Assembly (NCBI GenBank): GCA_048887225.1
Contig: JBHLJY010000007.1
Span: 32,001-96,000, forward strand
Origin: Candidatus Hodarchaeota archaeon
GTDB taxonomy: Archaea; Asgardarchaeota; Lokiarchaeia; Sigyniarchaeales; SOKP01
Length of the DNA stretch: 64,000 nucleotides
Reading direction: 5' to 3'
Shown: positions 9,235 through 62,815 of the stretch, piece by piece
Layout of the letters: the number at the start of each line of letters is the position of its first letter
Position numbering within the stretch: the first letter of the stretch is position 1
Program-made: the position numbers and the translations under genes
The notes under the pieces: model-generated
The model's database searches: none
Told to the model about the DNA's origin: nothing
The model's input: the letters and a program-made list of their open reading frames with translations, nothing else

Positions 9235-9681
9235 TTATGAATGATCTTTTTTATATCTTTCAATGATTTTCTTCTTTATTAGGCTTGAGCTATGCAGTTT
9301 GTATTTATCGTAAAATTCTTCTATTCTTTTTACTTTAATATGGTTCATCCCTTTCATTTTAAGGGCGTTTTGAAGTCTTTCAAGGCTAAACTTTTGGTCT
9401 GGGCCTAAAAGTATTATATCGGGATTTAATTCTTCCACTGTTTTAAGAGTGTCGTTATCATGCCTTCCTAATTTTGCATCTTTCACATTTTTAATACTTT
9501 TCATTACTTCCAATCTTTGTTGTTCTGGAATAATTGGCATCTCTCCAGAATATAATTCTCTATTTTTATCTGTAGCAACTATAATATAGACGTCTCCTAA
9601 TTTTGCAGCCTCATTTATCAAAAAAATGTGTCCAGGATGTAAAATATCAAATGTTCCAGCTATTAGAACTCTTTTCCGTAT
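9235..9681 (-). CDS. ribL: FAD synthase (cytidyltransferase family); true N-terminus lies upstream of the ORF-track start
   Basis: The in-frame extension encodes RKRVLIAGTFDILHPGHIFL (HxGH motif). The only candidate start in this frame is ATA at 9681, unless there is a 1-nt slip in an A6 run. Adjacent to ribK. Confidence 0.85.
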   Translation of the reverse strand: MRKRVLIAGTFDILHPGHIFLINEAAKLGDVYIIVATDKNRELYSGEMPIIPEQQRLEVMKSIKNVKDAKLGRHDNDTLKTVEELNPDIILLGPDQKFSLERLQNALKMKGMNHIKVKRIEEFYDKYKLHSSSLIKKKIIERYKKDHS

Positions 9682-9713
9682 TTTTTATCATCTCACATTT
9701 AATTTTCATTCAG

Positions 9714-11273
9714 TTAATTTACAACTTTAAAGGAAAGCCCGAGGAAAATCGGACCTCTTATATCAATCTTTTTTTGTTTGGAATGAATAAACTCTTGAAT
9801 GATATCGTCGAGTTCAATATTAACTTCTGAGGCTCGATAACACATCTTTACTCTATGATCATAAGAATTTTTACCTTGCTCAAGCATAATTTCAATATTA
9901 TATGCCATTTCTGAAGCAATCCCTTCCAAATAAGTCATTCCAGTATCAAAGCCATTGCCGGGACTTTCTTCTGGTGATAAACCTAAAATGCTTCCATCCT
10001 TTACCCAAATTTTATTTAAAGTGGCTGGACCAAGAAGTTGAACACCTTCATCTTTTTCCCAAATAGTCACATCAATATTTTTATTCTTGATTATACCATT
10101 CCATACCTTTATTTCTACTGGGGAGGAATCGTTCTTATGTTTAATAGATTTCTCAATTATAGCTTTTTTAATTTCAATTCCTATTTCAGTTAATGGAATG
10201 TATTTGTATTTAATTCCTTTACTTATTTCCTCGTCAGTAAATGAAATGTCTTCATAGAAATATGGGTACACGAGCTTTCTGATATCCTCAATTTCAGTCT
10301 TTATCATACAAATTCTTTCTACTCCGAAACCAACATTAAAAACTGGATATCCAATATTATATTGAGCAAGACTAACGGGACTATAAAATCCGCCATCACC
10401 AATCTCAATCCATTCTTTAGTTTTTGGATGCTCTACAAAAATTTCAAATTCTGTTTGGGGAGCGTAATATTTTGAAGTAGCTTTTTTTATTTCAGATTTA
10501 TTATTATTGAAACCCATTTGCTCACATATTGAAGAAACTATGTTTTGACAATCTTCTAAAGATATATTCTCCGCCATTATTACTAAAGATAAAGTATGAG
10601 AATCATATAAATGAGTGGCATCTATTTTCTGTTCTCTACGAAATTTAGGGCCAATTGTAAAATATTGAAGTGGTAAATTCTTTCTCTTACTCAAATTACT
10701 CAATACTTTAAACCATAATGCTGTTGTATGGCTTCTAAGGGTATTTTTAGTAGGAATTGGTTTAAGATTTTTTAATTCTGGAAATATTTTATCAATGATT
10801 TCAGAGGCTTCGCTTTCTTTTATTTTTAATTCATTTAAAAAAATCTCAATTAAATCATCCGCTTCAATATCCCCTTTTTTATATTTTCTAAAAATATCTT
10901 GTAATGAATCGATTTTATCGAAATTGGGGATTATAGATTGAATCTTTTCGATTTTCTCTTTTGAAATCCCGATATCCGGACGGGGAAGCCCCGCTAAATA
11001 AAATAATCGGTCGAGGATTAATGCGGCTTCTGGACCATATTGTTTATATATCTCATTCTCTTCAACGAACATTGGTAATACTAATTCTTCAAATCCTAAC
11101 CCAATCATTTTGCGTCTGGCTTCTGCGATAAATTCATAAACAGGGTGAGCCAGACCTTTTTTTTCTAAATTAAAAAGATTTCCTTTTAAATTTAGAAGAT
11201 TTCTAGATTCTAACCAAGCTCTCTCATAATTCTTTTTTGCATCTCTTTTTATTTTTTCAATGTCAAAAGGCAT
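9714..11273 (-). CDS. sepS: O-phosphoseryl-tRNA(Cys) synthetase (SepRS)
   Basis: NYERAWLES, YKQYGPEAALILDRLFYLAGLPRPDIG, TLRSHTTA, FRREQ..DATHL, YSPVSLAQY. Confidence 0.92.
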   Translation of the reverse strand: MPFDIEKIKRDAKKNYERAWLESRNLLNLKGNLFNLEKKGLAHPVYEFIAEARRKMIGLGFEELVLPMFVEENEIYKQYGPEAALILDRLFYLAGLPRPDIGISKEKIEKIQSIIPNFDKIDSLQDIFRKYKKGDIEADDLIEIFLNELKIKESEASEIIDKIFPELKNLKPIPTKNTLRSHTTALWFKVLSNLSKRKNLPLQYFTIGPKFRREQKIDATHLYDSHTLSLVIMAENISLEDCQNIVSSICEQMGFNNNKSEIKKATSKYYAPQTEFEIFVEHPKTKEWIEIGDGGFYSPVSLAQYNIGYPVFNVGFGVERICMIKTEIEDIRKLVYPYFYEDISFTDEEISKGIKYKYIPLTEIGIEIKKAIIEKSIKHKNDSSPVEIKVWNGIIKNKNIDVTIWEKDEGVQLLGPATLNKIWVKDGSILGLSPEESPGNGFDTGMTYLEGIASEMAYNIEIMLEQGKNSYDHRVKMCYRASEVNIELDDIIQEFIHSKQKKIDIRGPIFLGLSFKVVN

Positions 11274-11300
11274 TATTTCTCTTTAACTTTTTTAATTATG

Positions 11301-11921
11301 TTAATCGAATTTTATTTTATCATCAATACACTCTTTTAACTCAGATATTCTAAGTGTTAATGAAATGTCTCCTCTTGTTTTTTCAATAATATTTCTTCCC
11401 ACATCAATTTTATGCCTTAAATCTTGAGTTATTCCTGAAGGGTAATCTAAAGAAAATAAGTTTGTATAAATTTCGTCCATATCTTCTAAAATATTATTTA
11501 AATCATCAATTCGAGAATTCCTAATGTTATCTAATGCGTACCGCCGTAATTCTCCTATTACATCTGCTAAGCCTAATAAATAATGAAGAGAGTTTACATT
11601 TAATTCATTAGAGGTTGGCAAGGATAAATTATTGACAATTGAATAAAAGCAAACTGCTTCTGCATATTCTTGTTCAGGAGTTTTTAAGTATTTAAAAAAA
11701 ATTCCAGGATTTTTATTGACCAAATTTGTGAGAGCTTTCAATTTTAATTTAACTTGGTCAATTTTTTCTTTATAAATATTAAATTCCTTTCTATGAATTG
11801 ATTTAATCGCAATGCTACAATTTCGTATTATTTTGCGAGAAATTCTTAATATCTCCTCTCGATCTTTATCAAGTTCATCTAAACCTTTCGTAATTTCTGA
11901 AAAAATATTTTTAAGATTCAT
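11301..11921 (-). CDS. Translin/TRAX-family RNA-binding nuclease
   Basis: REEILRISR, QEYAEA, YLLGLADVIGELRR, LRHKID motifs. Confidence 0.88.
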   Translation of the reverse strand: MNLKNIFSEITKGLDELDKDREEILRISRKIIRNCSIAIKSIHRKEFNIYKEKIDQVKLKLKALTNLVNKNPGIFFKYLKTPEQEYAEAVCFYSIVNNLSLPTSNELNVNSLHYLLGLADVIGELRRYALDNIRNSRIDDLNNILEDMDEIYTNLFSLDYPSGITQDLRHKIDVGRNIIEKTRGDISLTLRISELKECIDDKIKFD

Positions 11922-12045
11922 ATGAATAACTAGATAACTTGGAAATTATTAAAATTTTTAATTAATATAATTAATTAACAAAAGTAAGTAAAATATTTAG
12001 AATTTATCAAAAATATAGTTTAACAAATAAACTAAAGAGATAATC

Positions 12046-12114
12046 GTGAAAATCTTATTAATTCATTCCGATGGAGTGTTCCTTATCTCGAATATATTTA
12101 TAAGCGATTTTTAA
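12046..12114 (+). pseudogene. Duplicated 5' fragment of thrS (first 11 codons, then unrelated sequence)
   Basis: GTG AAA ATC TTA TTA ATT CAT TCC GAT GGA GTG (MKILLIHSDGV) versus thrS 13907-13939 (MKMLLIHSDGV); 28/33 nt identical. Confidence 0.8.
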
Positions 12115-13906
12115 CCTTAATCTTCTTTATAAATCAATTATTTTATTAGGTGTTCACATTTTTAATATTAATTTAATATTACATAACCCTGTGTAATGTT
12201 TTCTCTAAAGTAGTAAGAAGTAAAATTATATATAGACATAATCATAAAATATATTCGGTGGTTAAGGTGTTTGAAAAACCACAAAAAAAATTATTTTGTT
12301 CAAATCCGAATATATGCCAGAAGAAAAAAAAAAGAAAACAGAATGTGCAGATGATCCTTTTTTATTAAGTAAAGCTAACGAAATTTGTAATGCGAGCGAC
12401 CATATTGATGAATATCCAAGTTCCCCAATCCAAACCTCTAAAGATTTTATTGAGGGTACCCCTTATATTAACTTGGGAAAACCAATTGAGGATTTAACAC
12501 CGAAGGAATTCAAGGAATCTTATAAGGGCGTATATTCTAACCTCTTTAAGTTCGTAAAAGATCGCCATAATATCGATTTAGGTATCATGACTCGAGATGG
12601 TTTAACTAAGTTAATAAGAAAAATGAATTATTATGGTATAATTTATAATTTTACTCAGATAAAAGATGGAGAAGGGAACGATATTCATTATGGCCCCAGT
12701 TGGGTAAAAGATGATAAAAAAGTTATCGCTGGATTTCATCGAATTGGTCGAGCAATTAATATAGAGGATCGGAAAACTTTATATAAGAGAGAAAAAACTG
12801 GAAAACATTTTGAGAATACATTCCAAAAATTAGGTCCTAGAGCATTTAATTTTAATTTTTTAGCGGTTTGTAAAAATGAACAAGAATATAAAGCTACTGA
12901 ATATTTTTGGCAATTATATTTTAATAGAGAGGAAAATGAAGATGGTTATGATTTACGAAATAATGGCAATTTTAATAATAGATTAGGAAGTATGTATGAT
13001 AATATTTCAAATCTAATTTTACCCAAATATTATTTAGTAAGAGATATCTTATATGGCTTAGACAAATTCGAATTAGATGAGAGATATAAAAATTTAAAGG
13101 GTATAATCTCCGTTAAACAAGCATTAATACATAATTTTGGGATAGAGTCTATTTTTAAAATAAGGGCTATGTTAGTCGCTCCTTTATTAGATTATAATCT
13201 TAAAAGAGGGTTAACCGAGCAAGAAAATATTGAAAAATTGATAGAGTCTGGTTTTGGAATGTTTGATAAAAATCTAATACAGGAGAGGAGTAGAGAGTAT
13301 GGTCCATCCTCAACAAGGACAAATCCCAAGAATCTTTTTCAAAGAATACTCGTATATACGTACGGTCCCCCTAGAATCCGACCTAGTAGAGTCTTTACTC
13401 ATTATGAGCAACTTAGAAAAGAGAATTTCTTTGAACCATTCATAGAGTATCTTAAAGATTTAAATATTGCCGAAATAATTGGTGAATCACAAAACGATCA
13501 AAATACGCTTTCTATTGTAGATTATTTATTTGAAAAATGTCTTTCACCTACTTATATAGTTAAATATTTAGGATACAAAGGGAGTGAGGCAGAATTATTA
13601 ATAAATAAAATAAACAATTACTTGAATAGGAGATGGAGACCTTTGATAGAGCAGTTTTCTTGGGATAAACTCAGATTATTCCTTAAATTCCATCCATTAA
13701 TAATTTCCACACATAAAGTATACTCTAAATATTTATAAAAAGTTTATAGATGATATTGCATTTCATTTTAGAGTTAATTATGATTCAATTGCTCAAATAA
13801 ACAGAATCCTTACTTAATACTTTTTTATTTAAAATTCAATATTAAAAAAATTTATCATTTATATTAGATTCATAGGATATATATAATTATTTGGTGTTTG
13901 TTGCAT
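12079..13906 (+). mobile_element. Putative selfish insertion (nuclease cassette) between the two copies of the thrS 5' end
   Basis: Bounded by the imperfect 33-nt direct repeat 12046-12078 / 13907-13939; carries only the GIY-YIG-like gene. Confidence 0.5.
12296..13738 (+). CDS. Divergent GIY-YIG endonuclease-like protein (homing-endonuclease-like), 480 aa
   Basis: YGIIY...RIGRA...R...HFENTFQKLGPRAFNF..L..C....E...TEYFW...GYDL resembles intron-type GIY-YIG catalytic domains; long unrecognised C-terminus. Confidence 0.6.
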   Translation: MFKSEYMPEEKKKKTECADDPFLLSKANEICNASDHIDEYPSSPIQTSKDFIEGTPYINLGKPIEDLTPKEFKESYKGVYSNLFKFVKDRHNIDLGIMTRDGLTKLIRKMNYYGIIYNFTQIKDGEGNDIHYGPSWVKDDKKVIAGFHRIGRAINIEDRKTLYKREKTGKHFENTFQKLGPRAFNFNFLAVCKNEQEYKATEYFWQLYFNREENEDGYDLRNNGNFNNRLGSMYDNISNLILPKYYLVRDILYGLDKFELDERYKNLKGIISVKQALIHNFGIESIFKIRAMLVAPLLDYNLKRGLTEQENIEKLIESGFGMFDKNLIQERSREYGPSSTRTNPKNLFQRILVYTYGPPRIRPSRVFTHYEQLRKENFFEPFIEYLKDLNIAEIIGESQNDQNTLSIVDYLFEKCLSPTYIVKYLGYKGSEAELLINKINNYLNRRWRPLIEQFSWDKLRLFLKFHPLIISTHKVYSKYL

Positions 13907-15964
13907 ATGAAAATGTTATTAATTCATTCAGATGGCGTAGAAGTAAGGAAACACAAAGAGGCAACAAGCAATCCTCAAGAGTTTTCTGAAGATTTCATAA
14001 AATTGGATGGTTTAATACTTATAGCTTATGTTTCTATCGAAGACCAAGATACATATGACACAGATATAATAGCTAAACAAGGAGCTGATGTTATAGAAGA
14101 AGCAATTTTCCTTATTACAGGGTTCCCTGAAAAAATACGTCAAAGGAATGAAGAAATAAGAGAACATAACCGAAAAGTAGAAGAAGGTAAAATAAAAGGA
14201 AAACCAAGAAAATATCTTGAATTAATCGCTGGAAGGGATAAATACATTGTTGACAAAGTATTAGTTTATCCATGGGCACATTTAAGTAAATTTTTAAGTC
14301 AAGATCCAAATGCGGCGGAAGTATGCCCAAAAATAGCTAAAATCTTAGAATCTAAAGGAATTAAGTCAAAATTCTCTCCATTTGGATGGTATAAATCTTT
14401 TAAAATTAATTGTATCGGGCATGAAGTAGCTGAAATGTATAGAGATGTAAAGCTTTATATTCAGCCAGAAGAACATTTGCAAAAGGCTCAATTTTTTGTA
14501 ATTACTCCAGAAGGAAAAGAAATAAAAATTCAAATAGATGACAATAAAGAAGTTTTGCCAATAAAAGAAGTCGATGAGGATTTTAATTTATTTATTAAAT
14601 CAGAATTAGGTGTTAGAAGAGCTGATCTCGGAGAAGAACCACCGCATATTAAGATAATGAAAAAGTTTGAGCTAATTGATTTCGAAAAAAATTCTGATAG
14701 TGGGAACTTGCGTTGGTATCCTAAGGGTGTAATTATGAAGAACCTTATCAAAAATTATTTAGATGAGAAGTTAATTGATTTTGGAGCAATTCTAGTTGAT
14801 ACACCTATTATGTATACCGTAAAAAGCAAGAAATTAACTGCCCAAACTGCGAGATTTCCAGCCAGAACATATTGGGTTGAATCAGGAAATAATCGATTTT
14901 TACTAAGATTTGCTGGGGATTTCCTCCAATTTGATATGTTTAGTGGAATGAACTTGAAACCTTCCTATTTCCCTCTAAAATTATATGAATATGAGCAGTA
15001 TGATTTCAGGAGGGAGAAAGAAGGAGAATTAACTGGTTTAAGGCGATTAAGAGGCTTTGTCATGCCAGATTTTCATACTCTGTGCAAGGATTTGGATTCA
15101 TCTGTTGAAGAATTTAAGAAACAATATGACTTAGATCAACAAGTTGCCGAGGATTTAGGAATTAAAGATCACTTAATTTTCAGGACAACACACGATTTTT
15201 ACAAAAAAAATAAAGGTTGGATTAAGGAATTAGTAAAAAAAGAAAACAAACCTGCTTTATTGGAACTCTGGGATGATAGGTATTATTATTTTGTTTTGAA
15301 GTTTGAAAGAGGAGTACTTTCCGCTCAAGATAAAAGCGGTACTCTCGCAACAATTCAAATTGATGTTGAAAGTACTTTAGAATATTTAGAAGATAAAGAT
15401 GGCAAAAAGAGACAAAAATATAATATTTACTTTACTGATGATGATGGGATTAAAAAGCATCCAATTATTCTTCACAATTCACCTTCAGGAGGTTTGGAGA
15501 GAGTGTTATGGGGGCTAATTGAAACAGCAATCAGAGAAAAGGATAAAATAGTTCCAGGGTTTAAAACGTGGTTATCTCCAATCCAAATAAGAGTAATAAC
15601 TGTCAGTAATAATCAGAACGAATACGCTGGAAAAATAATGCAAATTCTTAATGATCAAGGTTATAGAGCGGATTTCGATGATCGCGAAGAAAAAATAGGA
15701 AAAAAAATAAGACTAGCAGAAATTGAATGGATTCCTTATATAGTAATTGTAGGTAAAACAGAACAAGAGAATGAAACTATTTCTCTTCGTAAAAGATTAA
15801 TCGGACAACCGTTTGGCCCAAAAGGGAATACATCAGAGCAGTTAAAGAATATTCAACTAGAAAAGTTTTTAGAACTCCTTGAAAAAGATACGAAAGGATT
15901 TCCTAAATACAAGCTTCCGATACCATTTAGAAGGACTTCAACTAAAATATTCTTTCGTCGCTAG
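13907..15964 (+). CDS. thrS: Threonyl-tRNA synthetase, archaeal type with N-terminal editing domain
   Basis: MKMLLIHSD, VYPWAHLS, PFGWYKSFKINCIGH, FRRE..GEL.GL.RLR.F.MPD.HT, GGLER. Confidence 0.96.
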   Translation: MKMLLIHSDGVEVRKHKEATSNPQEFSEDFIKLDGLILIAYVSIEDQDTYDTDIIAKQGADVIEEAIFLITGFPEKIRQRNEEIREHNRKVEEGKIKGKPRKYLELIAGRDKYIVDKVLVYPWAHLSKFLSQDPNAAEVCPKIAKILESKGIKSKFSPFGWYKSFKINCIGHEVAEMYRDVKLYIQPEEHLQKAQFFVITPEGKEIKIQIDDNKEVLPIKEVDEDFNLFIKSELGVRRADLGEEPPHIKIMKKFELIDFEKNSDSGNLRWYPKGVIMKNLIKNYLDEKLIDFGAILVDTPIMYTVKSKKLTAQTARFPARTYWVESGNNRFLLRFAGDFLQFDMFSGMNLKPSYFPLKLYEYEQYDFRREKEGELTGLRRLRGFVMPDFHTLCKDLDSSVEEFKKQYDLDQQVAEDLGIKDHLIFRTTHDFYKKNKGWIKELVKKENKPALLELWDDRYYYFVLKFERGVLSAQDKSGTLATIQIDVESTLEYLEDKDGKKRQKYNIYFTDDDGIKKHPIILHNSPSGGLERVLWGLIETAIREKDKIVPGFKTWLSPIQIRVITVSNNQNEYAGKIMQILNDQGYRADFDDREEKIGKKIRLAEIEWIPYIVIVGKTEQENETISLRKRLIGQPFGPKGNTSEQLKNIQLEKFLELLEKDTKGFPKYKLPIPFRRTSTKIFFRR

Positions 15965-15974
15965 GTTAAGTTTA

Positions 15975-16598
15975 ATGACAATTAAAGTTATTATATTTGA
16001 TTTAGGAGGAGTTATTATTGAATTAGATTACTTAAACTTTTACAATAAAATAATAACGTTATCACCTTCAGAAAATCCCCGTACTCGAACTATGTTAGAA
16101 TTCTTTCGGCAATCTGACTTATACCATCAAGGAAAAATGTCTGACGAGGATTTTTACCATCTTGCTTGTAATCTGCTACAAGTTTGTATGTTAAATCAAT
16201 CTGAATTTTACAAAGCTTTTAATAGCATCGTTTCGCATCCTATTCCTGAAGCTATTGATTTGCTGAAAAAATTAAAAAAATTAAATAAATATAAACTAAT
16301 AGCTATGTCAAACGTCAATGCTAGCCATTGGGATTATATTTTAAGAAAAAATTGGGATTTTTTAGATTATTTTGATGAATTAATTCTTTCCCATGAAGTG
16401 AAAATAACTAAACCTGATCCTAAAATCTTCACATATGCAATAAAAAAAGCCAAATGTAAACCCAAAGAAATTGTATTTGTAGATGATGGGTCTAATAATG
16501 TGCGTTCAGCTGAAAAGTTAGGAATTATAGGAATTCATTTTATAAACATAGAAAAATTGATAAAGGACTTTGAAAAATTAAATATAAAATTTAATTAG
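15975..16598 (+). CDS. HAD-superfamily phosphatase
   Basis: IIFDLGGVI, SN, KPDPKIF, FVDD motifs; ATG at 15975. Confidence 0.9.
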   Translation: MTIKVIIFDLGGVIIELDYLNFYNKIITLSPSENPRTRTMLEFFRQSDLYHQGKMSDEDFYHLACNLLQVCMLNQSEFYKAFNSIVSHPIPEAIDLLKKLKKLNKYKLIAMSNVNASHWDYILRKNWDFLDYFDELILSHEVKITKPDPKIFTYAIKKAKCKPKEIVFVDDGSNNVRSAEKLGIIGIHFINIEKLIKDFEKLNIKFN

Positions 16599-17116
16599 AT
16601 CTCCATACATACTACGCATGCTTTTGCGATATAGTTGAAAGCTTTCTCAACATTATCTCCTGTCTTTGCTGAAGTTTCTAAATAATCGCAGCCCAATCTT
16701 TTTGCTAAATCCTCTGCTTCCGTTCTATCCACCTGACGTTTCAAATCACTTTTATTCCCTAATAAAATCATCGGTATGGTTTTTTTAACTGTCTTTTTTA
16801 TTGATGACACCCACCCTGGGATTTTTAAGAGAGATTGTGGACTAGTTAAGTCATAAACTCCTAGAGCTGCATTGCTTCCTTTGAAATAAATAGTTCGGAG
16901 TTTATGGAATTGTGGTTGCCCACCAATATCCCAAAGAAGTAATCTTACTTGCTTTCCTTCAATTTCAACATCCTTTATTAAAAAATTTGATCCAATAGTC
17001 TTTTTCAAATCCTCACTGAAGTGATCTTTTACAAAACGAAGTAAAAGAGAGGTCTTACCGACGCCTCCTGGTCCAAAGAGAGTAATTTTGAATTTAAATT
17101 CGCTTGATTCGCTGAT
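16595..17116 (-). CDS. Rab/Ras-like small GTPase; N-terminus extends upstream of the ORF-track start
   Basis: In-frame upstream FKITLFGPGGVGKTSL (G1), then TIG, WDIGGQ, NKSD, ETSAK; probable ATC start at 17116. Confidence 0.92.
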   Translation of the reverse strand: MSESSEFKFKITLFGPGGVGKTSLLLRFVKDHFSEDLKKTIGSNFLIKDVEIEGKQVRLLLWDIGGQPQFHKLRTIYFKGSNAALGVYDLTSPQSLLKIPGWVSSIKKTVKKTIPMILLGNKSDLKRQVDRTEAEDLAKRLGCDYLETSAKTGDNVEKAFNYIAKACVVCMEI

Positions 17117-17255
17117 TTCAATAACCTTTTTCGAGTTATTTTAAGTCGATTTTGTTTTACTTCTAGTACTAATATTGATATAATTGTTCTAAAATATTTA
17201 TATATTTATAATAACTTTTAGCCAAAAATTATTTTTAATCTCATTTGAATAATTT

Positions 17256-19157: not shown

Positions 19158-19178
19158 ATATTAAGAAGGTAATAAATT

Positions 19179-20078
19179 ATTAGCAAAAAAAATGAAGATC
19201 TTTTAAAAAAGGATCAGAATCAAGGCATTGAATCTAGTTTTTATTATGCCTTAAGTCACGACATTCGCAGAAAAATTATCAAAATCATTGGTGATGATAG
19301 ATTTTCGTCATTTACGAATCTCAAAAAAATTTTAAAAGTAAGTACTGGTACGATTTATCATCATCTAGATTCATTATCTCAATTGATTGAACAGAAAGAG
19401 GACAAAAAGTATTATTTGACTGACTTAGGAATGTACGCATATAATTCTTTAAAAGAAAATATTGAGATAATAGAATCGCCAGATATTTCAAAACGGGAAT
19501 TTAATTCGCCTTTTTTGAGATTTTTAATGTTTTTAACTCCTAAAAAATTTATTTCATTTGAAGAAAAAGATAAAGTTTATAATTCCATAGTTTCTCTTAG
19601 TATTTTAATGATAGGCGCGATACTTTGTGGATTAAACGCATTTTACACATTTTTTATATTTCATATAGAAACTACAGAAGATATTTATAAGTTAGAAATT
19701 ATTTCTCACGTATATTTTTCTATATTATATATACTTAATTTCATAATTTCTTTTTTGCTCGTAGAAGGAAGTTGTCGTTTATTTTACAAGAAAAAAGAGA
19801 GAACCCTCGATTTCCTCTTTACCTTACCGATTATATTTTATCCGATGGTAATTTACTTATTAATACATTTCATTTTATTATCTTCAGAATTACTTATTAA
19901 AATAACATTTTTCCGTATTATAGATGTCTTTCTACTCATTTTTTTTCAAGTTTTATCCCTGTGGTTGTTAACCTATAGTATTAGTGTGAATAAAGGATTA
20001 AAAATCGAAAATGGATTAATAGTTTCTTTATTTCTACATTGGGGTAGTTTTACAATTGTTTTGTTTTTACTTATTTGA
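19179..20078 (+). CDS. ArsR-type wHTH fused to a multi-TM (Yip1-like) domain; start upstream of the ORF-track call
   Basis: In-frame extension YALSHDIRRKII...SFTNLKKILKVSTGTIYHHLDSL followed by YYLTDLG; probable ATT start at 19179 (or 19176). Confidence 0.75.
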   Translation: MSKKNEDLLKKDQNQGIESSFYYALSHDIRRKIIKIIGDDRFSSFTNLKKILKVSTGTIYHHLDSLSQLIEQKEDKKYYLTDLGMYAYNSLKENIEIIESPDISKREFNSPFLRFLMFLTPKKFISFEEKDKVYNSIVSLSILMIGAILCGLNAFYTFFIFHIETTEDIYKLEIISHVYFSILYILNFIISFLLVEGSCRLFYKKKERTLDFLFTLPIIFYPMVIYLLIHFILLSSELLIKITFFRIIDVFLLIFFQVLSLWLLTYSISVNKGLKIENGLIVSLFLHWGSFTIVLFLLI

Positions 20079-33916: not shown

Positions 33917-35275
33917 TTATTTCATTAATTCTCTAAGAAGCATTGTAGCATAGGATCCTTTTGGGAGTGAAAATTCAATTTTTATTTTTTTTTTACCTGG
34001 AAAAAGATCATCATCGTTTAGTTCAACGATATTTAATCCAGTAGGTTTGGCAATCATAGCTCTAAATGAACCTTTAAATCCAAACTCATATAATAAATCG
34101 CTTTTGTAAATGTTCTTATCAATATGTTCTTCTTTAATGATTACTTCAAAAAGATTTTTCATAAGGAGAAAGTGATCTAAATTAGTGTTATATCCTACAA
34201 TAGGAACAACTATCGTAGCCCTATTGACTTTTATTGCTTCGTCCAAATATTCATCATAAAGCCCCCCAAGCCTACCATATATATATTTTATTTGAGTAAC
34301 ATTTCCATTATCATCATCTAAAATACTAATAGTATCTCCTTTAACCGGTTTTAAGGGTATTCCCATTTTGACTCGTAGAGAAATCATTTTATTAAAAATG
34401 TAAGATTGAAACGAGCTAATTAATAAATTTTTTAAGTCTGGAGGGATTGCATTAAAGCAACCTTTATAATCTCCAGGAAAGTCTATTAAATGTTTAATCA
34501 TAGACCTTTCATAAGAGAGGCTTTTTGGAAAGGTTTCATAAATCTTTTCAAGGTCAATATTATTCTTTACATTACTACGAATAGACTGCAATTGAGGACT
34601 TTCGGAAGAGTATTTCACTGAAACAAACTCATCGAACGCTTTTTCAAAATTTCCTTCTAACAAATACCTTCCTATTTTATGAGAATTAGGTCTATACTTT
34701 CCGAATCTTTGAAGTCCAAAATAATTTGGGAATCCTTGCTTTTCTAAAAGTTCAATTAAATAATCAATATTTTTCTCTAAATTCTCTTTATTATCAATAT
34801 TTCTTATTACTATTGTAAAATTATTACCCCAATTAACTCCTAATTTTACTGGCTTTTTGGTTGGTTCAATACATCTAAAAAACAAATCCCTTATCTTTAA
34901 TCTTTTTAATTGTTCAATAAAATTTCCTCTAATAGAAAGCTTTTGAACGCTAATTGAACATTTATCTTTTAATCCAGAATAATATACAAAATTCGGTGAG
35001 ATCTTTAAAGCTTGACTAATTTCATTTATAGCTTCAAAAGTGTCTTTATTAATCTTAATCAAATTAAATGTGGTATATTTATCTTTTGAATCTTCTAAAA
35101 AAGGTGTATAGGTGAAATCGTCTTTAATTTCGAGGATTTTCCCTTTAGTGGTTATTTCTTTTACTATAAAATCTTTATAAGTGTTTTTGTATACGCCACC
35201 AATGCCACCTATTTCTGCTGTGCTGTATATCTCAATTCCTACAAATTTTTCAACATCCGTGTTGTTATTCTTTAT
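33917..35275 (-). CDS. truD: tRNA pseudouridine(13) synthase TruD; N-terminus extends 71 codons beyond the ORF-track start
   Basis: Extension encodes VGIEIY...GIGGVYK...DFIVKE; core [34 protein letters not shown]; probable ATA start at 35275. Confidence 0.93.
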
Positions 35276-35628
35276 AATAATTGCAAATCTCCCGTTATTT
35301 TATCAATTTCAGTTGATAAAGCAGGACCTATCCCCAAAGCAGTCATAGTACCAGGATCTAATTGAGTTAAACCTGCATCCTTAACAAGAAAACATGGAAT
35401 TCTATTTTTAAGTACCTTCTTATATATTTCATTAATTTCTTCCATACTACTAACCTTTAATATAACTTTTTTTTGTCCTGAATTTTTCCATTTTTTCCAT
35501 TCTTTTTTAGTTTTTACTCTTGCTAAATCGGAGGCAGAAACACTAGCATGACATGCTTGAGCACATTTCTTCCCAGCACTCATCTTTAAATCTATTCTAA
35601 TTAAAATAACTTGTTTAAATTTATACAT
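35272..35628 (-). CDS. pth2: Peptidyl-tRNA hydrolase Pth2
   Basis: [41 protein letters not shown]. Confidence 0.95.
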
Positions 35629-42453: not shown

Positions 42454-42629
42454 GTTAAATATTAAAAATTTCTTTTAATTTTTTTTGAGTTTTTGTCGTT
42501 TTGATAATTATTGGACTAAAGATCATTTTAATACTAGTAATTTTGATTTAATCAAGATAAATATAAATATCTTAAGAATATAAAAATATTATAAAATTAA
42601 ATAATAAGATAAATAAAGAGGTTTTAAAT

Positions 42630-43268
42630 ATCGGATTTTTACGGATTTTTGGATCGGGCATCGTTGGAATGATATTAATGATTCCAATAGCTTATATTTG
42701 TTTTGTTTCATTTGATACGCTAAGCTTAATTACTGGCGGTTTAATTCAAAATATACTTGGGTTGGTAAGTGGTTATGGAGAAATTGTTATGTTTATTTTC
42801 GGTGCGTTCTTAGGAGTAGGTTTAGTTTGTATATTTCCGATTCATTGGGCTCTTATAAATCATCCTGATAATATATTGTTATTATTAGCACTTGTACTTC
42901 CTTGGATTATTACTTGCTCTATAGCTTCGTTTTTGTTTGCTCATAGTCCCCGAGGAGGTATACATACGAGTTTAGCTATTGGACTTGGCTATTTCATTCT
43001 GATGACGATTCCTTACCTTCTATTCTCGTTTTTTTTAAGTCAAGCTGGTCTTGCAGGAGTTAGTATAATTGATGGTATCACAATAGGATTAACTGGGATG
43101 CCATGGGTACTTTCAGCTCTTACTGCTACAATGGAAGGAGCTGGCATTGGAGCAGTTTTTGGAGCGCTTGTTGGTAGTTTTAAATATAAACCAGAAGGAA
43201 AAGAAAAAAAGAAGTCAAAAAAATCTAAAAAAGAGTTAGAATCCATAGTGGAGCCCACTTTTGATTAA
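42630..43268 (+). CDS. Gly-rich multi-TM membrane protein
   Basis: Hydrophobic ORF; the first TM extends upstream to an ATC at 42630 preceded by GAGGT. Confidence 0.65.
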   Translation: MGFLRIFGSGIVGMILMIPIAYICFVSFDTLSLITGGLIQNILGLVSGYGEIVMFIFGAFLGVGLVCIFPIHWALINHPDNILLLLALVLPWIITCSIASFLFAHSPRGGIHTSLAIGLGYFILMTIPYLLFSFFLSQAGLAGVSIIDGITIGLTGMPWVLSALTATMEGAGIGAVFGALVGSFKYKPEGKEKKKSKKSKKELESIVEPTFD

Positions 43269-54000: not shown

Positions 54001-54153
54001 TTTAAAATTATAATTTCTATATTTTTGGAAAGAAATTATATTATATATTATTATATATAGCTTGATAATAAATTTAATTGGTTCTAAAAGAATTTCTTTT
54101 TATATGAATTATAAAATAGATAATTAGAAAAAATTCAATTTTTATATCATCAG

Positions 54154-54783: not shown

Positions 54784-54924
54784 TTGTCTAAATATTTCCC
54801 ATATAATTTCATCAATTAAGAGGCTGTAAATTAGAATAAATTATCTCAGAAAATTAAATGTTTATATAAGATTAGGGGCAATTTTAATATATTAAGTCTT
54901 TAAATTACAAATGAGGTATATACA

Positions 54925-55188: not shown

Positions 55189-55328
55189 ATTCTTTTTTTT
55201 TTTCTTATTTTAAATCAAAATTATCATTAAAATATCTTAATTTTCCAATGGAAACCAACCAAGAAATCGAAGAGTTTTTAAATGAACTCGATCGAGAGAA
55301 AGTAAAGAAACAGAAATAAGATGTTGAA

Positions 55329-56513: not shown

Positions 56514-56557
56514 ATTCATATTTCTTTATATTATTAATTAAAAAACTACTTTCCGTT

Positions 56558-57052
56558 TTATAAAGAGTAATTTTCCAAAAATTGTACAATTTCTTCTAGC
56601 ACTAATTTTTTAAATGTTATTCTGTCTGCTTTAAAGTTATGTTTTTTAACCATTGTTTCTTTCATTGTTGAATAACTAATATACACTAAACCAACAGGTT
56701 TTTCTGGACTCCCTCCTTTTGGGCCAGCAATGCCCGTAATTCCAATACCTATATCACATGGTTTCGACATTATTCTAACGTTATAAGCCATTTGTATTGC
56801 TACTTCTTCTGATACAGCACCATATTCTTCAATATATTTAGGATTTATTTTTAGGATATCAATTTTAGCTTGATTTCCATAAGAAACGATTCCTCTTTCA
56901 AAAGTTTTTGATGCTCCCGATATGCTTGTAAACATATGTGATACATACCCTCCAGTACAAGATTCAGCAATAGCAATCCAAATATTATTCTCAGAAAATT
57001 TATGGATAATTTTTTTAATTCTTTCATTAAGATCTTGGGACATTATTCTCAA
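56558..57052 (-). CDS. cinA: CinA/PncC-family NMN deamidase
   Basis: AESCTGG, GAVSEEVA..MA, ITGIAGPKGG..EKPVGLV. Confidence 0.9.
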   Translation of the reverse strand: MRIMSQDLNERIKKIIHKFSENNIWIAIAESCTGGYVSHMFTSISGASKTFERGIVSYGNQAKIDILKINPKYIEEYGAVSEEVAIQMAYNVRIMSKPCDIGIGITGIAGPKGGSPEKPVGLVYISYSTMKETMVKKHNFKADRITFKKLVLEEIVQFLENYSL

Positions 57053-57190
57053 ATTAAATGTATAAACTTTTTTAATATCAATTTTTTATAAAACTACAAC
57101 TAATAAAAATTAATAAACACTAGAAATAACATAATTCTGAATTTAAAAATTAATAATTATAATCGGAAAAAAATTTAACAGAGTGATTGA

Positions 57191-57724
57191 ATGAGTCAAA
57201 ATGAGAACGCATTTGTATTCAAAATAACTGTAATTGGAGATGGAGCTGTAGGAAAAACTTCTTTAATTAAGAAATACACCCAAGGTTCATTTCAAAAAGA
57301 TTATATTAAAACTTTAGGAGCACAGTTTTCTAAATATGACGAGGAAATAGATGGCGATAATGTCAAATTATTTTTTTGGGATATTGCCGGTCAGGCGGAA
57401 TTTATGTTTATGCGCCCTACTTTTTATAAAGGGTCAAAAGCAGCTATCATTGTATTTTCTCACGCCCCTGGAGAAGAAGAAAGTTATGAACACGTTGTTC
57501 AGTGGCATGATGATATCAAAAATTTCTGTGGAGATTTACCTATAGTATTATTTGGAAATAAACTTGATTTAGTTAACGAGAAGAATTTAGATGATAAAAA
57601 AGTACAAGATTTAATAAAAGACCGAAATTTCCTTGGATATTATAAAACTAGTGCAAAAACTGGTAGTGGAGTGTATAAAGCTTTTCAAGCAATAATAAGG
57701 GAATTATATAATAAATATAAATAA
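57191..57724 (+). CDS. Rab-like small GTPase
   Basis: GDGAVGKT, TLG, WDIAGQ, NKLD, TSAK. Confidence 0.93.
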   Translation: MSQNENAFVFKITVIGDGAVGKTSLIKKYTQGSFQKDYIKTLGAQFSKYDEEIDGDNVKLFFWDIAGQAEFMFMRPTFYKGSKAAIIVFSHAPGEEESYEHVVQWHDDIKNFCGDLPIVLFGNKLDLVNEKNLDDKKVQDLIKDRNFLGYYKTSAKTGSGVYKAFQAIIRELYNKYK

Positions 57725-57754
57725 AGGCGCCTAATACCTATTTTGACGATATAG

Positions 57755-58048
57755 ATGTATACTGACCAAGAATATCCTAAGATCCTATTTTTTTCATCTA
57801 ATCATTGCGCACCTTGTAAACCTGTTGAAGAAATAATAAAAAGAATTAATATTTCAATGTTCGGAAAAAAATTATATATAGAAAAAATTGATATTGAAGA
57901 GAGTGCAAACAGAAATGTCATACAAAAACACCGAATAACGACAATACCCACAATAATTATTGCAGACAGAAGACTCACCAAAAACATTCAAGAGGAAGAA
58001 ATTATTGATGCTATTCTCTACGGCTTCATTTCGTCAGTTAAAATATGA
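57755..58048 (+). CDS. Thioredoxin-like protein
   Basis: HCAPCK active site; cis-Pro motif TIPT. Confidence 0.85.
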   Translation: MYTDQEYPKILFFSSNHCAPCKPVEEIIKRINISMFGKKLYIEKIDIEESANRNVIQKHRITTIPTIIIADRRLTKNIQEEEIIDAILYGFISSVKI

Positions 58049-58100
58049 ATAAAATCAAAAAAAGTAAAATGAATATTAAATATAAAATAATTTACAAAAA

Positions 58101-58589
58101 GTGAAAAATATGGACCGCCAATTATTATCAAAAATATTGTCACAAATGAAAAAACATCTCAAAGAAAAGAAGGAAATAGGGGATATGAAAGTTGGAGCTT
58201 TACTAGCTTTGGGACACCAATTAGAAGCTATATTTTATTATTTAGGCCACGAATTAGGAACTATTCTAAGTGTTAAACGAGTTAAAGATGTAAAACATAT
58301 TCCCGAAGCGTTAAAAAAAATAATTTCGGAATATAATATTGGAGATATTACAATTACGGAAAGTAAAGAAGAAATAGTTTCATTAAAATTGAAAGGGCAC
58401 TCTTCTAGTAAAGATTTAATTGGAAAAGGTATAAAAGCAGAAGGAAATTTTTGTTCTTTTGAAGCAGGGATGCTAGCTGGGATTGTCGAACGAATGAGTA
58501 ATATCCACTGCTTTGCTCAAGAGTTAAATTGTAGTTTACAATCCGGAGAAGGTGCATGCGAATTCATGATAGTATTTCAGAAAGATTAA
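58101..58589 (+). CDS. V4R-domain protein (H-NOX/Bet3-related fold)
   Basis: YYLGHELG, CSFEAGMLAG, ELNCSLQSGEGACEF. Confidence 0.85.
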   Translation: MKNMDRQLLSKILSQMKKHLKEKKEIGDMKVGALLALGHQLEAIFYYLGHELGTILSVKRVKDVKHIPEALKKIISEYNIGDITITESKEEIVSLKLKGHSSSKDLIGKGIKAEGNFCSFEAGMLAGIVERMSNIHCFAQELNCSLQSGEGACEFMIVFQKD

Positions 58590-58681
58590 TTATTTTTAAT
58601 CTCTCAAATATCATAAAATTATTAATAATCGCGCGAATATTATAACGATATATAGAAAGTAAATTATCTTATTGATCGAAA

Positions 58682-59212
58682 ATGACTGAAAGAAATTATG
58701 TTGTTAAAATTTGTTTGTTAGGGGAAGCAAATGTGGGAAAAACTTCATTGGTGTATAGATTTATTGAAAATAAATTCAGAGACAACTATAAAAGTACTCT
58801 GGGAGTTAATCTTTTAAAGAAAGATCTCGATATTGATAATTACACGGGAGTTTCGGCTCAAATATGGGATCTTGGAGGGCAAGAATCTTTTAAAAGTCTA
58901 AGGAAATTATATTTAGAGGGAGCCAATGGTGCTCTTATAGTTTACGATACAACAAAAAGAAAGACCTTTGATAGCCTCAGCGATTGGGTTCAAAGCTTTC
59001 GAGAATCAAGGGGAGATCAACCGTTATTATTAATAGGAAATAAAATTGATTTAAAAAATAAGATAAAAATCGACGAAAAAGAAGCTAAAGAATATGCGGA
59101 AAAAAATCAAATGGCGTTCCTTCTAACATCGGCAAAAACTGGTAATAACGTTGAAACAGCATTTAAAGAATTAATAAAGACTATCCTCGATAAAGCTATG
59201 TCGAATAAATAA
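58682..59212 (+). CDS. Rab-like small GTPase
   Basis: GEANVGKT, STLG, WDLGGQ, NKID, TSAK. Confidence 0.93.
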   Translation: MTERNYVVKICLLGEANVGKTSLVYRFIENKFRDNYKSTLGVNLLKKDLDIDNYTGVSAQIWDLGGQESFKSLRKLYLEGANGALIVYDTTKRKTFDSLSDWVQSFRESRGDQPLLLIGNKIDLKNKIKIDEKEAKEYAEKNQMAFLLTSAKTGNNVETAFKELIKTILDKAMSNK

Positions 59213-59423
59213 CTAGTAAATCATTTTATTTCATATTTCCATTTTTAACAAATAAAAAAAATATGTTTAAAAATACTCTTCAAATTTGATGTTTTAAGGT
59301 TTATTTATTTTTAAAACAATTCCTTTATAAAGGATACTTTACTTTATAAAAAATATAAAAAAAAAACCCATACTTTTTTCTTAATAAAACTCAATTTATC
59401 AAATATCTGCTTTAGATGTAATA

Positions 59424-60074
59424 ATGTCAGAGGAAGAAGAAGAGGAAGAGGGCGAAGAAGAGGAAGAGAAGTATGATTATGAAACTGACTTAGATTATAA
59501 AATAGAGAATGTTGTAGCAACTGTAAGCGTTGAGATTACTGAAAAGATCGACCTTAACCAAATTGCCCGAAAACATGCAGAAGTAGAATATAATCCAGAG
59601 AGATTTCCAGGATTAGTGATGAGAATCGAAAAGCCACGTGCAACTATTCTTATTTTCTCTACTGGAAAAATGGTAGTTACCGGATTAAGAAGAGCAGCTG
59701 AGGCTCAAAGAGTTGTAGAAAAAGTAGTAAAAAATATTAGAAAAGCTGGAATTAAATTAGCTAATCCTGAAATTACAATTCAAAATATTGTCGCTTCTGG
59801 AGATCTTCATACAAACATTGACTTAAATATGGCAGCGATTGTTATGGAATATGCAATGTACGAGCCTGAAGTATTCCCTGGTTTAATTTATCGGATGCAA
59901 GATCCTAAAACAGTATTTTTAATTTTTAGTACTGGGCGCATTGTGTGCACAGGTGCTAAACAAAAAGAAATTGTTAGGGACGCCGTTTTAAAATTAAACC
60001 AACAAGTCCGTGAACTGGGCGTTGCTAAAAAAGATATTGCCGAATCTGAATATCAAGATATAACTTTTATCTAA
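59424..60074 (+). CDS. tbp: TATA-box binding protein
   Basis: Two repeats NVVAT...YNPERFPGL...LIFSTGK and NIVAS...YEPEVFPGL...LIFSTGR. Confidence 0.97.
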   Translation: MSEEEEEEEGEEEEEKYDYETDLDYKIENVVATVSVEITEKIDLNQIARKHAEVEYNPERFPGLVMRIEKPRATILIFSTGKMVVTGLRRAAEAQRVVEKVVKNIRKAGIKLANPEITIQNIVASGDLHTNIDLNMAAIVMEYAMYEPEVFPGLIYRMQDPKTVFLIFSTGRIVCTGAKQKEIVRDAVLKLNQQVRELGVAKKDIAESEYQDITFI

Positions 60075-60108
60075 TTTTTTATTTTTTCCCCTTATTTTTA
60101 CAATATTT

Positions 60109-60390
60109 CTATAAAGAACCGCAAAATTTACGTTTAATAACATTTTGAAATTCTTTAAGAACCCTCTTATTGACTATTCCATCACCATTGTTATTATAAA
60201 GAAGCACTATTTCTCCTGAACTTAAATCTTTAAATCCCGCAACTTCAAAATGATTATGACTATTAGCGCAAGAAATATATACCGAATCTTTTTGATTGTC
60301 GAAATTTAACTCTGAATCACATGTAGGACAATGATTTAGTTCAATTGATTGAATACTCCGCAATAATTTGTTCATTTCATCGCAGTACAT
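60109..60390 (-). CDS. Small zinc-ribbon-like hypothetical protein
   Basis: CPTC...C...H pattern. Confidence 0.55.
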   Translation of the reverse strand: MYCDEMNKLLRSIQSIELNHCPTCDSELNFDNQKDSVYISCANSHNHFEVAGFKDLSSGEIVLLYNNNGDGIVNKRVLKEFQNVIKRKFCGSL

Positions 60391-60455
60391 AACAGGAAAA
60401 ATTACTAAATCGTTAAAGAAAGAAAGTATTATTTGAATAATACTAAATTCAAATT

Positions 60456-60728
60456 TTAAAAGGAATAGTCAAAGTTTTTAAATTTATTTTGAGGCTCTTT
60501 AATTTCGTAATCAACTTTATCAACATGTGCATATTTTGGACCTTTTTTAGAAAACTCAAGTAATTCAAGCAATTTTTCACGGGGTCCTTCTGCTTCAATA
60601 TATACACTACCATCTGGCATATTTTTAACGTAACCAGTTAAACCTAATTTTCTAGCAACTTTTCGAGTCGTATAACGAAAAAAAACTCCTTGAACTAGTC
60701 CATAAACGTTAATAATAATTCGCTTCAT
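60456..60728 (-). CDS. acyP: Acylphosphatase
   Basis: GLVQGVFFR, GYVKNMPDGSV. Confidence 0.95.
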   Translation of the reverse strand: MKRIIINVYGLVQGVFFRYTTRKVARKLGLTGYVKNMPDGSVYIEAEGPREKLLELLEFSKKGPKYAHVDKVDYEIKEPQNKFKNFDYSF

Positions 60729-60753
60729 TTCAAATAATTAATTTCTTATTTAA

Positions 60754-61887
60754 TTATTTACTCACTAGCTTTTTCATAATATTAATATATTCATCTAAAT
60801 CTTCTTTTAATATTTCAGGATGAATATCCAGAGCAAAAACCTCCTCTGTTACTTTTTCTACGACTGGTAGATTAATCTTTGAATATTCAATATCTTTTCC
60901 ATAAAAGGGACAAGACCATGGACAACCCTTAGGATATGCTATTTTTTCTTGAAATAATTTAGTCTGATATAATGGAATGGGATATAGTACTTTGCTCTGA
61001 GGAAATTTTTCTATGAAATGTTGTTTGTTTAATCCAATTATATTAGGTTGAATTCTTCCAATCCAATAATTAAAGGCGGGTTCACAATATTCTGGAACAT
61101 AAGGAGGATCAATTCCATTGATATCATTTACTTTATCTGTTAAATATTGTGCATTTTTATTTCGCGCCTTTACGTAATCATCTAACTTCCTTAATTGAAC
61201 TCTTCCGATTGCTCCTTGAATTTCAGTCATTCTATAATTCCAACCTAAACGATTATAAACATACCAAGAAGGTTCACCATGATGCCTGATTAATCTACAT
61301 AACTCAGCTAATTTGTCATTATTGGTGGTGATCATTCCCCCTTCTCCCGTAGTCATATTTTTAGAAGGATAAAAACTAAAAGCACTAAAATTTCCTAATG
61401 ATCCTACTTTTTTGCCTTTATATTTTGCTCCATGTGCTTGACATGCATCTTCAATAATATACAAATTATTCTCTTTAGCAATTTCCAAAAGAGGGTCCAT
61501 ATCAGCTGTTAATCCAGCTAAATGTACAGGAATTATTGCCTTGGTTTTATTTGTTATCCGTTTACTTATTGAATCTGGATCTAAGGTATAGGTTTTGTTG
61601 TCTATATCAGCAAATATAGGAATTGCGTTATTTTGCAAAATTGAGCTTGCCGTAGCTATAAAAGTAAAAGGAGGAACAATTATTTCATCACCAGGTCCAA
61701 TTCCCAATGCTGCAATAGCAATATGGAGGGCCGCAGTTCCAGAATTAACTCCAATAGCATGTTTTACACCAATATAATTTGCAAATTCTTTTTCAAAATT
61801 TTTTACGACATTTCCAGCTAATAAGGTTAGCATCTGAGATTCAATTACCTTAATAACTTCTTTTTTTTCTTCCTCAGTAAGATTCAT
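60754..61887 (-). CDS. DegT/DnrJ/EryC1/StrS PLP-dependent aminotransferase
   Basis: NSGTAALH, TFIATA, IEDACQAHGA, SFYPSKNMTTGEGG, GWNYRM. Confidence 0.93.
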   Translation of the reverse strand: MNLTEEEKKEVIKVIESQMLTLLAGNVVKNFEKEFANYIGVKHAIGVNSGTAALHIAIAALGIGPGDEIIVPPFTFIATASSILQNNAIPIFADIDNKTYTLDPDSISKRITNKTKAIIPVHLAGLTADMDPLLEIAKENNLYIIEDACQAHGAKYKGKKVGSLGNFSAFSFYPSKNMTTGEGGMITTNNDKLAELCRLIRHHGEPSWYVYNRLGWNYRMTEIQGAIGRVQLRKLDDYVKARNKNAQYLTDKVNDINGIDPPYVPEYCEPAFNYWIGRIQPNIIGLNKQHFIEKFPQSKVLYPIPLYQTKLFQEKIAYPKGCPWSCPFYGKDIEYSKINLPVVEKVTEEVFALDIHPEILKEDLDEYINIMKKLVSK

Positions 61888-61999
61888 TTTAGCCTCTTAA
61901 ATCTTTATTTTTTTAAGATTTGATTATAGCACATATAAATAAAAAAAAGAATAGCCATCTTAAGAATGTGCTTATTAAAAAATAGAAAGGAAAGGCTTT

Positions 62000-62635
62000 T
62001 TAGTATAATATAAAATATGTGTTATTTGTACTATTGTAAGCAACTATTTTATCTTTAAGAAGACTTTTTATAACGCTCTCTAACCAACGCTCACTAGTTT
62101 TTACTTGTTTTTTAATATCGTTATAACTTAGTTGATCATTCGTAGCTAATAAGAATAAGATTCTGCTTTTAATAGTTAATTGGTTTGAACTTAGTACTCT
62201 ATCAATTCTTTTTTCTAAATCATAGAGTCTCATCTTCAAATCTGCGACCTCATTACTTAATTTAGCAATGACCTCATCTCTAGTTCTAAAGACATTTAAA
62301 CTGAATTTAAATCTCCTTTCTAATTGTTCCTTTAAATCCTCTTCATTTTCATATTTATCAAGATCTTTGTTGAATTCTTCAAGAACGATTAGATAATCGT
62401 TGCCTTCATCAAATTTGTCTAATACAAGAACAATCACTATTTCTTTTTTGGAATTATAAAAGGAAACTGAATTCCATTCTTTCTCTTCCGTTATGATATA
62501 CGATTCCGTAAAATTATGAGAAATTTGAATTTGTTGTACTACGCTATCAGGAATATTGAGATCCCCTGGAAACTTCAAATAAATTGTTCCACCAATTACC
62601 TCATCCCACTTTATTAGGAAGATTCCTTTAGGTAT
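62000..62635 (-). CDS. Longin/uDENN-like N-terminus, coiled coil and C-terminal wHTH; start upstream of the ORF-track call
   Basis: In-frame extension (M)PKGIFLIKWDEVIGGTIYLKFP from ATA at 62635, with GGTGA SD; heptad region; wHTH tail. Confidence 0.65.
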   Translation of the reverse strand: MPKGIFLIKWDEVIGGTIYLKFPGDLNIPDSVVQQIQISHNFTESYIITEEKEWNSVSFYNSKKEIVIVLVLDKFDEGNDYLIVLEEFNKDLDKYENEEDLKEQLERRFKFSLNVFRTRDEVIAKLSNEVADLKMRLYDLEKRIDRVLSSNQLTIKSRILFLLATNDQLSYNDIKKQVKTSERWLESVIKSLLKDKIVAYNSTNNTYFILY

Positions 62636-62815
62636 TATCTTTCACCAATAAATTTAATATATAATTTTAAAAATAAACTTTTATGACTTAATAATAATCG
62701 TATTGTATTTTCTTTATATTTTTATTTGAAATTTTTTAAGAAAAATAGTTCATTAAGTAAGATTATCTAAAAAAATATATATGACAAATTCGATTTCTTA
62801 AATAGAGGATTCTTT

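Follow-up and report, generated by a model that had tools for sequence, protein, structure and literature searches.

Where does translation begin in a gene whose conserved N-terminal sequence lies upstream of every ATG, GTG and TTG codon of its reading frame? This question is raised by six genes in a stretch of 64,000 nucleotides (the window) from Candidatus Hodarchaeota archaeon, which corresponds to positions 32001-96000 of contig 7 in a genome assembly of 3.27 Mb, 30% GC and 49 contigs (GCA_048887225.1, here G000). An earlier note on this DNA had proposed that these genes start at ATT, ATA or ATC (collectively ATH; AUH in the mRNA) and that start-codon selection is relaxed in the lineage. 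For each flagged gene, we walked upstream from the first ATG, GTG or TTG (canonical start) to the next in-frame stop. All six genes carry an open frame upstream of the first canonical start, devoid of any further canonical codon, and an in-frame stop close to the proposed ATH codon. The upstream coding sequence had thus been described correctly in six of six cases, including the coordinates and the upstream stops. The comparisons reported here make it very probable that all six are intact genes whose translation begins at ATT, ATA or ATC, and suggest that about 8-10% of the genes in this genome now carry an ATH start.

Start columns of six genes in related genomes

The six genes encode a ribL-like cytidylyltransferase, a Ras/Rab-like small GTPase, an ArsR-type helix-turn-helix (HTH) transmembrane protein (ArsR-TM), the tRNA pseudouridine-13 synthase TruD, a conserved polytopic membrane protein and a conserved protein that the earlier note called longin-like (Table 1). 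When translated from ATH, Pfam matches span residues 7-137 of the ribL-like protein (CTP_transf_like), residues 10-166 of the Rab-like protein (Ras, profile positions 1-159) and residues 14-452 of TruD (TruD, profile positions 2-412), each of these domains beginning ahead of the first canonical codon. SD-like motifs (SD, Shine-Dalgarno) had been noted 6-8 nt upstream, and such a motif precedes all six starts with spacers in this range, that of the ribL-like gene being imperfect; none of the six has the SD-less start of a leaderless gene.

Each of the six proteins was searched in 25-40 related genomes and the codons were read from the upstream stop to the conserved block. For five of the six genes, ATH recurs in 5-11 independently assembled genomes per gene, and for the membrane protein in one relative. 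The relatives sharing ATH show 50-97% protein identity, intact frames and complete Pfam domains. Aligning orthologue N-termini, a check proposed together with the original claim, placed ATH in the same column as ATG, GTG or TTG, and ATH persists across genera. The start codons proposed for the Rab-like (ATC 17116), ArsR-TM (ATT 19179, with ATT 19176 as an alternative), membrane protein (ATC 42630) and, as a possibility, ribL-like (ATA 9681) genes agree with these columns.

In the Rab-like family, 11 of 24 orthologues are without any canonical start, while ATG or GTG occupies the same column elsewhere. The consensus across genera reads A(A/G)GGTT, 6 nt, AT(C/T/A) and then a Ser or Thr codon; in the window, an in-frame TAA lies 8 codons before ATC 17116. 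About 51 Ras-family GTPase matches are present in the genome. One Rab-like orthologue (L060, G006:C161) has around 10 extra codons with an in-frame stop between the KFKV strand and the P-loop; these may reflect a misassembly, a short insertion or something akin to an intron.

The start column of the longin-like gene contains only ATA, ATT, ATG, GTG or TTG across 22 orthologues, nearly always followed by a Pro codon, with ATH in 9 of the 22 and GGTGA located 6 nt upstream. Because the in-frame TGA sits inside this GGTGA, there is no start further upstream. The proposed ATA 62635 agrees with this column. The name longin-like was not confirmed, the protein having no Pfam match. For the ribL-like gene, ATA or ATT is found at the start column in 6-8 of 22 genomes and ATG in others, six of the 22 genomes being ATH-only by the anchor test. 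Relatives keep its SD in the form GAGATGA or GAGCTGA. A nearby upstream ATG in another frame, which could be the start if one base of an A-run were wrong, was considered and rejected, since relatives either do not have that ATG or have a stop after it.

For the ArsR-TM gene, in which ATT 19176 and ATT 19179 directly follow a TAA, the sequence 'GGAAGGTAA TTA ACT ATT' was found in three congeners and in one other genus. ATT also stands behind an SD in two further genera, and distant relatives have ATG or TTG; overall, ATH is kept in 4-7 independent assemblies. The ArsR name was not confirmed by Pfam, the sole match being DUF7347 below the cut-off. In the membrane protein gene, ATC GGA TTT aligns with ATG GGA TTC of a congener, and ATT is present in another genus where a neighbouring genome has ATG.

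The closest homologues of the window TruD are NCBI records named Promethearchaeota, together with one Thorarchaeota; along with the Ras-family matches mentioned above, they identify the genome as that of a Loki-type Asgard archaeon. Five congeners keep the triplets ATT ATT ATA without a canonical start, and in other genera ATG, GTG or TTG is found a few codons off; the SD motif in relatives is AGGAG. A non-canonical start was hence correctly predicted for truD, but the predicted codon, ATA 35275, was not retained. The most likely start is ATT 35281, which is favoured by the SD spacing and by the NCBI records of two relatives, whose proteins begin at the first ATT (MIIK or MIID). In the window (35272-35281, minus strand), the stop codon of an upstream gene of 118 aa overlaps ATA 35275, as ATAA here and as ATAG in three congeners. 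This overlap, present in five genomes, is of the coupling type, on ATA instead of ATG. Among the flagged genes it occurs in truD only, the other five having intergenic gaps. In one truD orthologue (L018, G010:C19), no canonical or ATH codon precedes the conserved block. An ATG lies out of frame shortly upstream, which points to a frameshift or to a single-base indel within a run of A.

Over the six families, ATH was the only start available in 30 of 44 sequences from the same genus, in 5 of 38 from other genera of the family (with one more having neither a canonical nor an ATH codon), in 2 of 21 from a second family and in 0 of 12 from a GC-rich family, a tally that is biased because the families were picked from G000. 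The sequence upstream of the in-frame stops is AT-rich and not conserved as protein, which argues against stop read-through or an altered code.

Table 1 Genes with proposed ATH starts and their SD motifs (window positions unless a contig is named)
Feature	Position	Strand	Start and remarks
ribL-like cytidylyltransferase gene	9235..9681	-	start ATA 9681; 21-codon extension holds HxGH motif
SD of ribL-like gene, imperfect GAGATGA	9688..9694	-	6 nt before ATA
Ras/Rab-like small GTPase gene	16595..17116	-	start ATC 17116; 44-codon extension, upstream of first TTG, holds P-loop
SD of Rab-like gene, AAGGT	17124..17128	-	7 nt before ATC
ArsR-type HTH and transmembrane protein gene	19179..20078	+	start ATT 19179 (or ATT 19176); 69-codon extension holds HTH
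SD of ArsR-TM gene, AAGGT	19166..19170	+	8 nt before ATT 19179, 5 nt before 19176
truD (tRNA pseudouridine-13 synthase) gene	33917..35281	-	ATT-ATT-ATA at 35281/35278/35275; 79-codon extension holds TruD N-terminus
SD-like GGGAG of truD	35289..35293	-	7 nt before ATT 35281
Conserved polytopic membrane protein gene	42630..43268	+	start ATC 42630; 31-codon extension
SD of membrane protein gene, GAGGT	42618..42622	+	7 nt before ATC
Conserved protein gene (longin-like in the earlier note)	62000..62635	-	start ATA 62635; 21-codon extension
SD of longin-like gene, GGTGA	62642..62646	-	6 nt before ATA; includes the in-frame stop TGA
aIF1 gene (Pfam SUI1)	contig C26:21104-21427, outside the window	-	start ATC; no ATG/GTG/TTG before zinc knuckle

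Genome-wide share of probable ATH starts and their SD motifs

For a count on the genome scale, stop-to-stop open reading frames (ORFs) of G000 were paired as reciprocal best hits with those in 1.2 Mb of a congener (G001) after removal of shadow ORFs. A gene was counted as needing an ATH start when at least 10 aligned residues with at least 40% identity lay upstream of its first canonical codon. This held for 39 of 502 genes with both N-termini aligned (7.8%). At an identity threshold of 30%, the share was 8.3% in this genome and 6.7% in the congener (565 pairs). Identity upstream of the first canonical codon had a mean of 64%, similar to the genome-wide median of 67%. As a control, the 12 codons preceding each of 197 verified starts, with ATG in both genomes, were translated in frame and proved 16% identical, so that the conservation ahead of the canonical codons exceeds chance. 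Since the detection power is 0.77 (77% of verified genes are free of canonical codons between codons 2 and 11), the true share lies near 10%. Within the window, 6 of 58 genes with an orthologue need a non-canonical start, exactly the six flagged ones, which matches the earlier estimate of five to six in about 60. The claim of relaxed start-codon selection, as far as it can be read from sequence, is supported by these numbers and by the alignment of ATH with canonical codons in orthologues.

To define the SD of this organism, the 3' end of the 16S rRNA was read directly (...GGATCACCTCCT), which gives AGGAGGTGATCC as the full SD. A contiguous match of at least 5 nt to the anti-SD complement, positioned 3-10 nt before a 5'-end ATH codon, was present in 20 of the 39 genes (51%) as compared to 14% of the 197 verified ATG starts. 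Internal control windows of equal size in the same genes gave an SD rate of 4.6%, the enrichment being specific to ATH codons at the 5' end. The ATH starts thus appear to rely on a ribosome-binding site. The SD-supported start codons were ATT in 18 cases, ATA in nine and ATC in one, roughly following codon usage, and the in-frame stop is often the TGA or TAA of GGTGA or GGTGATAA. Besides the window genes, those with an SD-ATH pair include ordinary housekeeping genes, encoding the transcription factor TFB, a rubrerythrin, CdhD, an ABC ATPase, a ferredoxin, a pterin-binding protein and a family-2 glycosyltransferase. In TFB, the zinc ribbon comprises residues 26-65 and the first canonical codon is at 41; in the rubrerythrin, the latter is only at 112.

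A count over all 5' extensions of ORFs, which does not depend on orthologues, found an SD before 5.9% of ATH codons versus 3.0% of other codons in this genome and 8.4% versus 3.6% in the congener. The same count gave 6.4% versus 6.1% in a relative of the same order with 54% GC. The ratio of ATH to other codons is thus 1.1 in the GC-rich relative and 2.0-2.3 here, a weak SD-based contrast which suggests that the SD-ATH signal is missing from that relative. A raw scan of the same extensions with 4-mer SD motifs revealed only a weak enrichment at ATT, because most such codons are not starts. Among the non-canonical codons in these extensions, ACG has the top SD rate (7 of 50), which makes it a possible start in a few genes. 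Comparing the lengths of start-less extensions between genomes was dropped as a measure, as it is confounded by GC content and shadow ORFs.

Comparisons of this genome with the second family (G032) and the GC-rich family (G033) were underpowered at ~40% identity, and the matches were mostly gene fragments or possible cases of selenocysteine TGA. In the G032 segment (L200-L219; 55876-58183) and the partner contig C8 (~59747-61576), the conservation of HdrA/MvhD-like ORFs reaches as far as an in-frame TGA. These TGA codons are likely selenocysteine codons and not odd starts.

Initiator tRNA, aIF1 and competing explanations

Inspection of the initiation machinery, also suggested in the earlier note, disclosed no change in the initiator tRNA; what it did bring up is a weak start codon in the gene of the initiation factor aIF1. 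ARAGORN and BLAST found one initiator-type tRNA, with A1:U72, three G:C pairs in the anticodon stem (GGG/CCC) and the anticodon CAU. Its gene lies at contig C34:11007-11133 and contains a 48-nt intron at position 40/41. ARAGORN reported only 32 tRNAs genome-wide, so that many tRNA genes probably have unusual introns. Two ARAGORN calls of tRNA-Ile(UAU) look spurious, one with 29% GC and the other with a doubtful intron model, and were not used.

The frame of the aIF1 gene opens after the TGA of a conserved motif and reads AAGGTTGTGA AAA GAC AAA ATC. Of 21 genomes of the family, 18 offer nothing but ATT or ATC at the start column, which follows the same motif; in the other three, the GTG belongs to that motif. 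In the second family, the gene has a canonical start in 8 of 9 genomes, mostly TTG or GTG. Archaeal aIF1 destabilises complexes on AUU and other non-AUG mRNA in vitro and discriminates against AUU in Saccharolobus (summarised in PMC4705826, PMC6237735). For bacterial IF3 as well as for eukaryotic eIF1, synthesis is under the factor's own control via a weak start (PMC4705826, PMC6237735).

In the mechanism we propose, the SD would pair with the 3' end of the 16S rRNA (...GGAUCACCUCCU) and place the near-cognate codon in the P site of the small subunit. Because the single initiator tRNA has the anticodon CAU, ATH must be read with a mismatch at the third position; this ordinary tRNA would pair with the first two bases and tolerate the third, and the protein would presumably start with Met. 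An AT-rich lineage that accepts ATH often enough would allow ATG and ATH to interchange at starts over evolution. Since aIF1, which rejects non-AUG complexes, itself starts at ATC or ATT, a feedback similar to that of infC may operate, in which low aIF1 would lower the stringency and thereby yield more aIF1. A further-reaching idea, which we put forward only tentatively, is a constitutively low start stringency tuned by aIF1 and self-set through its AUC or AUU codon, with the ~10% of AUH genes, among them TFB and Ras-like GTPases, forming a regulon that would rise as aIF1 falls.

Several points weigh against initiation at ATH. About 11 of the 39 genes, roughly a quarter, have no clear SD-ATH pair and may use another start route or be mis-assigned. 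The rate comes from this genome and its congener. At ATG start columns, ATH accounts for 30% of the non-ATG replacements versus 28% at internal Met positions, which is no difference; as Met-to-Ile changes are common everywhere, this substitution spectrum does not discriminate. Finally, adjacent ATH codons in the truD, ArsR-TM and longin-like genes mean that the exact start codon cannot be fixed there.

Part of the set might be initiated by another route, namely by termination-reinitiation coupling, leaderless initiation or ACG-type near-cognates, or might owe its apparent extension to read-through at selenocysteine TGA. Genes without an SD-ATH pair, the truD overlap in five genomes, the SD rate of ACG and the distant-genome extensions that follow an in-frame TGA in HdrA/MvhD-like genes all speak for such a mixture. 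We nonetheless consider it unlikely, as the six window genes have their SD 6-8 nt before ATH, the stops preceding them are TAA or fall within AT-rich, non-coding DNA, and the SD enrichment is specific to 5'-end ATH.

We judge it equally improbable that the ATH starts are real and merely as frequent as in any AT-rich prokaryote, without special relaxation in this lineage. NCBI table 11 includes ATT, ATC and ATA among its alternative initiators, and the outgroup rates that could set the frequency here apart are underpowered. To our knowledge, however, AUU starts in model bacteria number only a few (infC, pcnB) and make up much less than 1% of genes, as compared to ~8-10% here with the gene of the proofreading factor included, and the SD ratio at ATH drops to 1.1 in the GC-rich relative of the same order.

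Less credible still is a start at the first downstream ATG, GTG or TTG, with shortened proteins and an upstream conservation that is untranslated or regulatory. Standard gene finders do call such starts, as in the Prodigal-type TruD entries of 412-415 aa. Yet they would remove the P-loop, the whole HTH, ~60 TruD profile positions, the HxGH motif, the TFB zinc ribbon and the aIF1 zinc knuckle, and the upstream sequence is conserved as protein, without stops, across genera. Sequencing or assembly errors or recent start-loss pseudogenes in one metagenome-assembled genome, conceivable for a 49-contig assembly, can be set aside with near certainty because ATH is conserved across independent assemblies and the affected genes include the single-copy essentials aIF1, truD and TFB with intact frames.

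Known systems and consequences for annotation

Translation from ATH codons, the reading that we prefer, belongs to a familiar type of event, as AUH behind an SD is known from infC; what is unusual is its scale, its place and the inclusion of the proofreading factor itself. NCBI tables 11 and 4 and mitochondrial ATA, ATT and ATC starts likewise represent ATH initiators in AT-rich systems; different from those systems, the genome studied here has kept the nuclear-type archaeal machinery (aIF1, aIF1A and aIF2), and elongation follows an unaltered code. In the AUU starts of bacterial infC (encoding IF3) and E. coli pcnB, a near-cognate AUH codon likewise stands behind an SD and is served by a normal initiator tRNA. 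These bacterial cases concern a handful of genes, as opposed to ~8-10% in an archaeon whose fidelity factor is a homologue of eIF1 and in which autoregulation would be the counterpart suggested by the aIF1 start.

Like aIF1 here, infC is the gene of a fidelity factor that itself uses a weak codon (PMC4705826). Autoregulation of eukaryotic eIF1 via an AUG in poor context involves a homologous SUI1-family factor and a weak start whose use depends on factor abundance (PMC4705826). The weak signal in our case is a non-AUG codon with an SD rather than a Kozak context, and there is no scanning. The in vitro systems of aIF1 discrimination in Saccharolobus and of proofreading in Pyrococcus employ the same factors and SD-led mRNA (PMC4705826, PMC6237735). 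They reject AUU when aIF1 is present, whereas the lineage studied here appears to accept AUU in many genes.

Full-text literature searches returned no systematic description of ATH starts. The one relevant item, a Methods remark on the Asgard tubulin atubA of Kariarchaeaceae, mentions a 'likely' 'rare ATT start codon' (PMC13394414). As in our genes, a database protein was too short, and an upstream ATT at a plausible distance from the ribosome-binding site restores an N-terminal strand. There, a single gene was noted as 'rare'; here, the habit is quantified genome-wide and is conserved.

If around one in ten genes starts at ATH, Asgard protein sets built on ATG, GTG and TTG alone would be systematically truncated at the N-terminus, with the loss of P-loops, zinc ribbons and HTH domains. 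Such truncation had been anticipated and is seen in the Prodigal-type TruD entries; it is less general than stated, since NCBI already uses ATT in two relatives. This would have consequences for structure prediction, for expression constructs and for phylogenies of eukaryotic signature proteins, and for atubA the start has already been fixed manually. The results further suggest that eIF1-type proofreading is of low stringency in the closest archaeal relatives of eukaryotes, and that the proofreading factor may control its own synthesis via a weak start codon. In cultured Lokiarchaeia, the evolution of start-codon fidelity becomes testable.

TTG starts, described in the earlier note as frequent, are indeed common: of 2708 ORFs genome-wide, 560 (21%) have TTG as their first canonical codon, and 16 of 451 verified start columns pair TTG with ATG.

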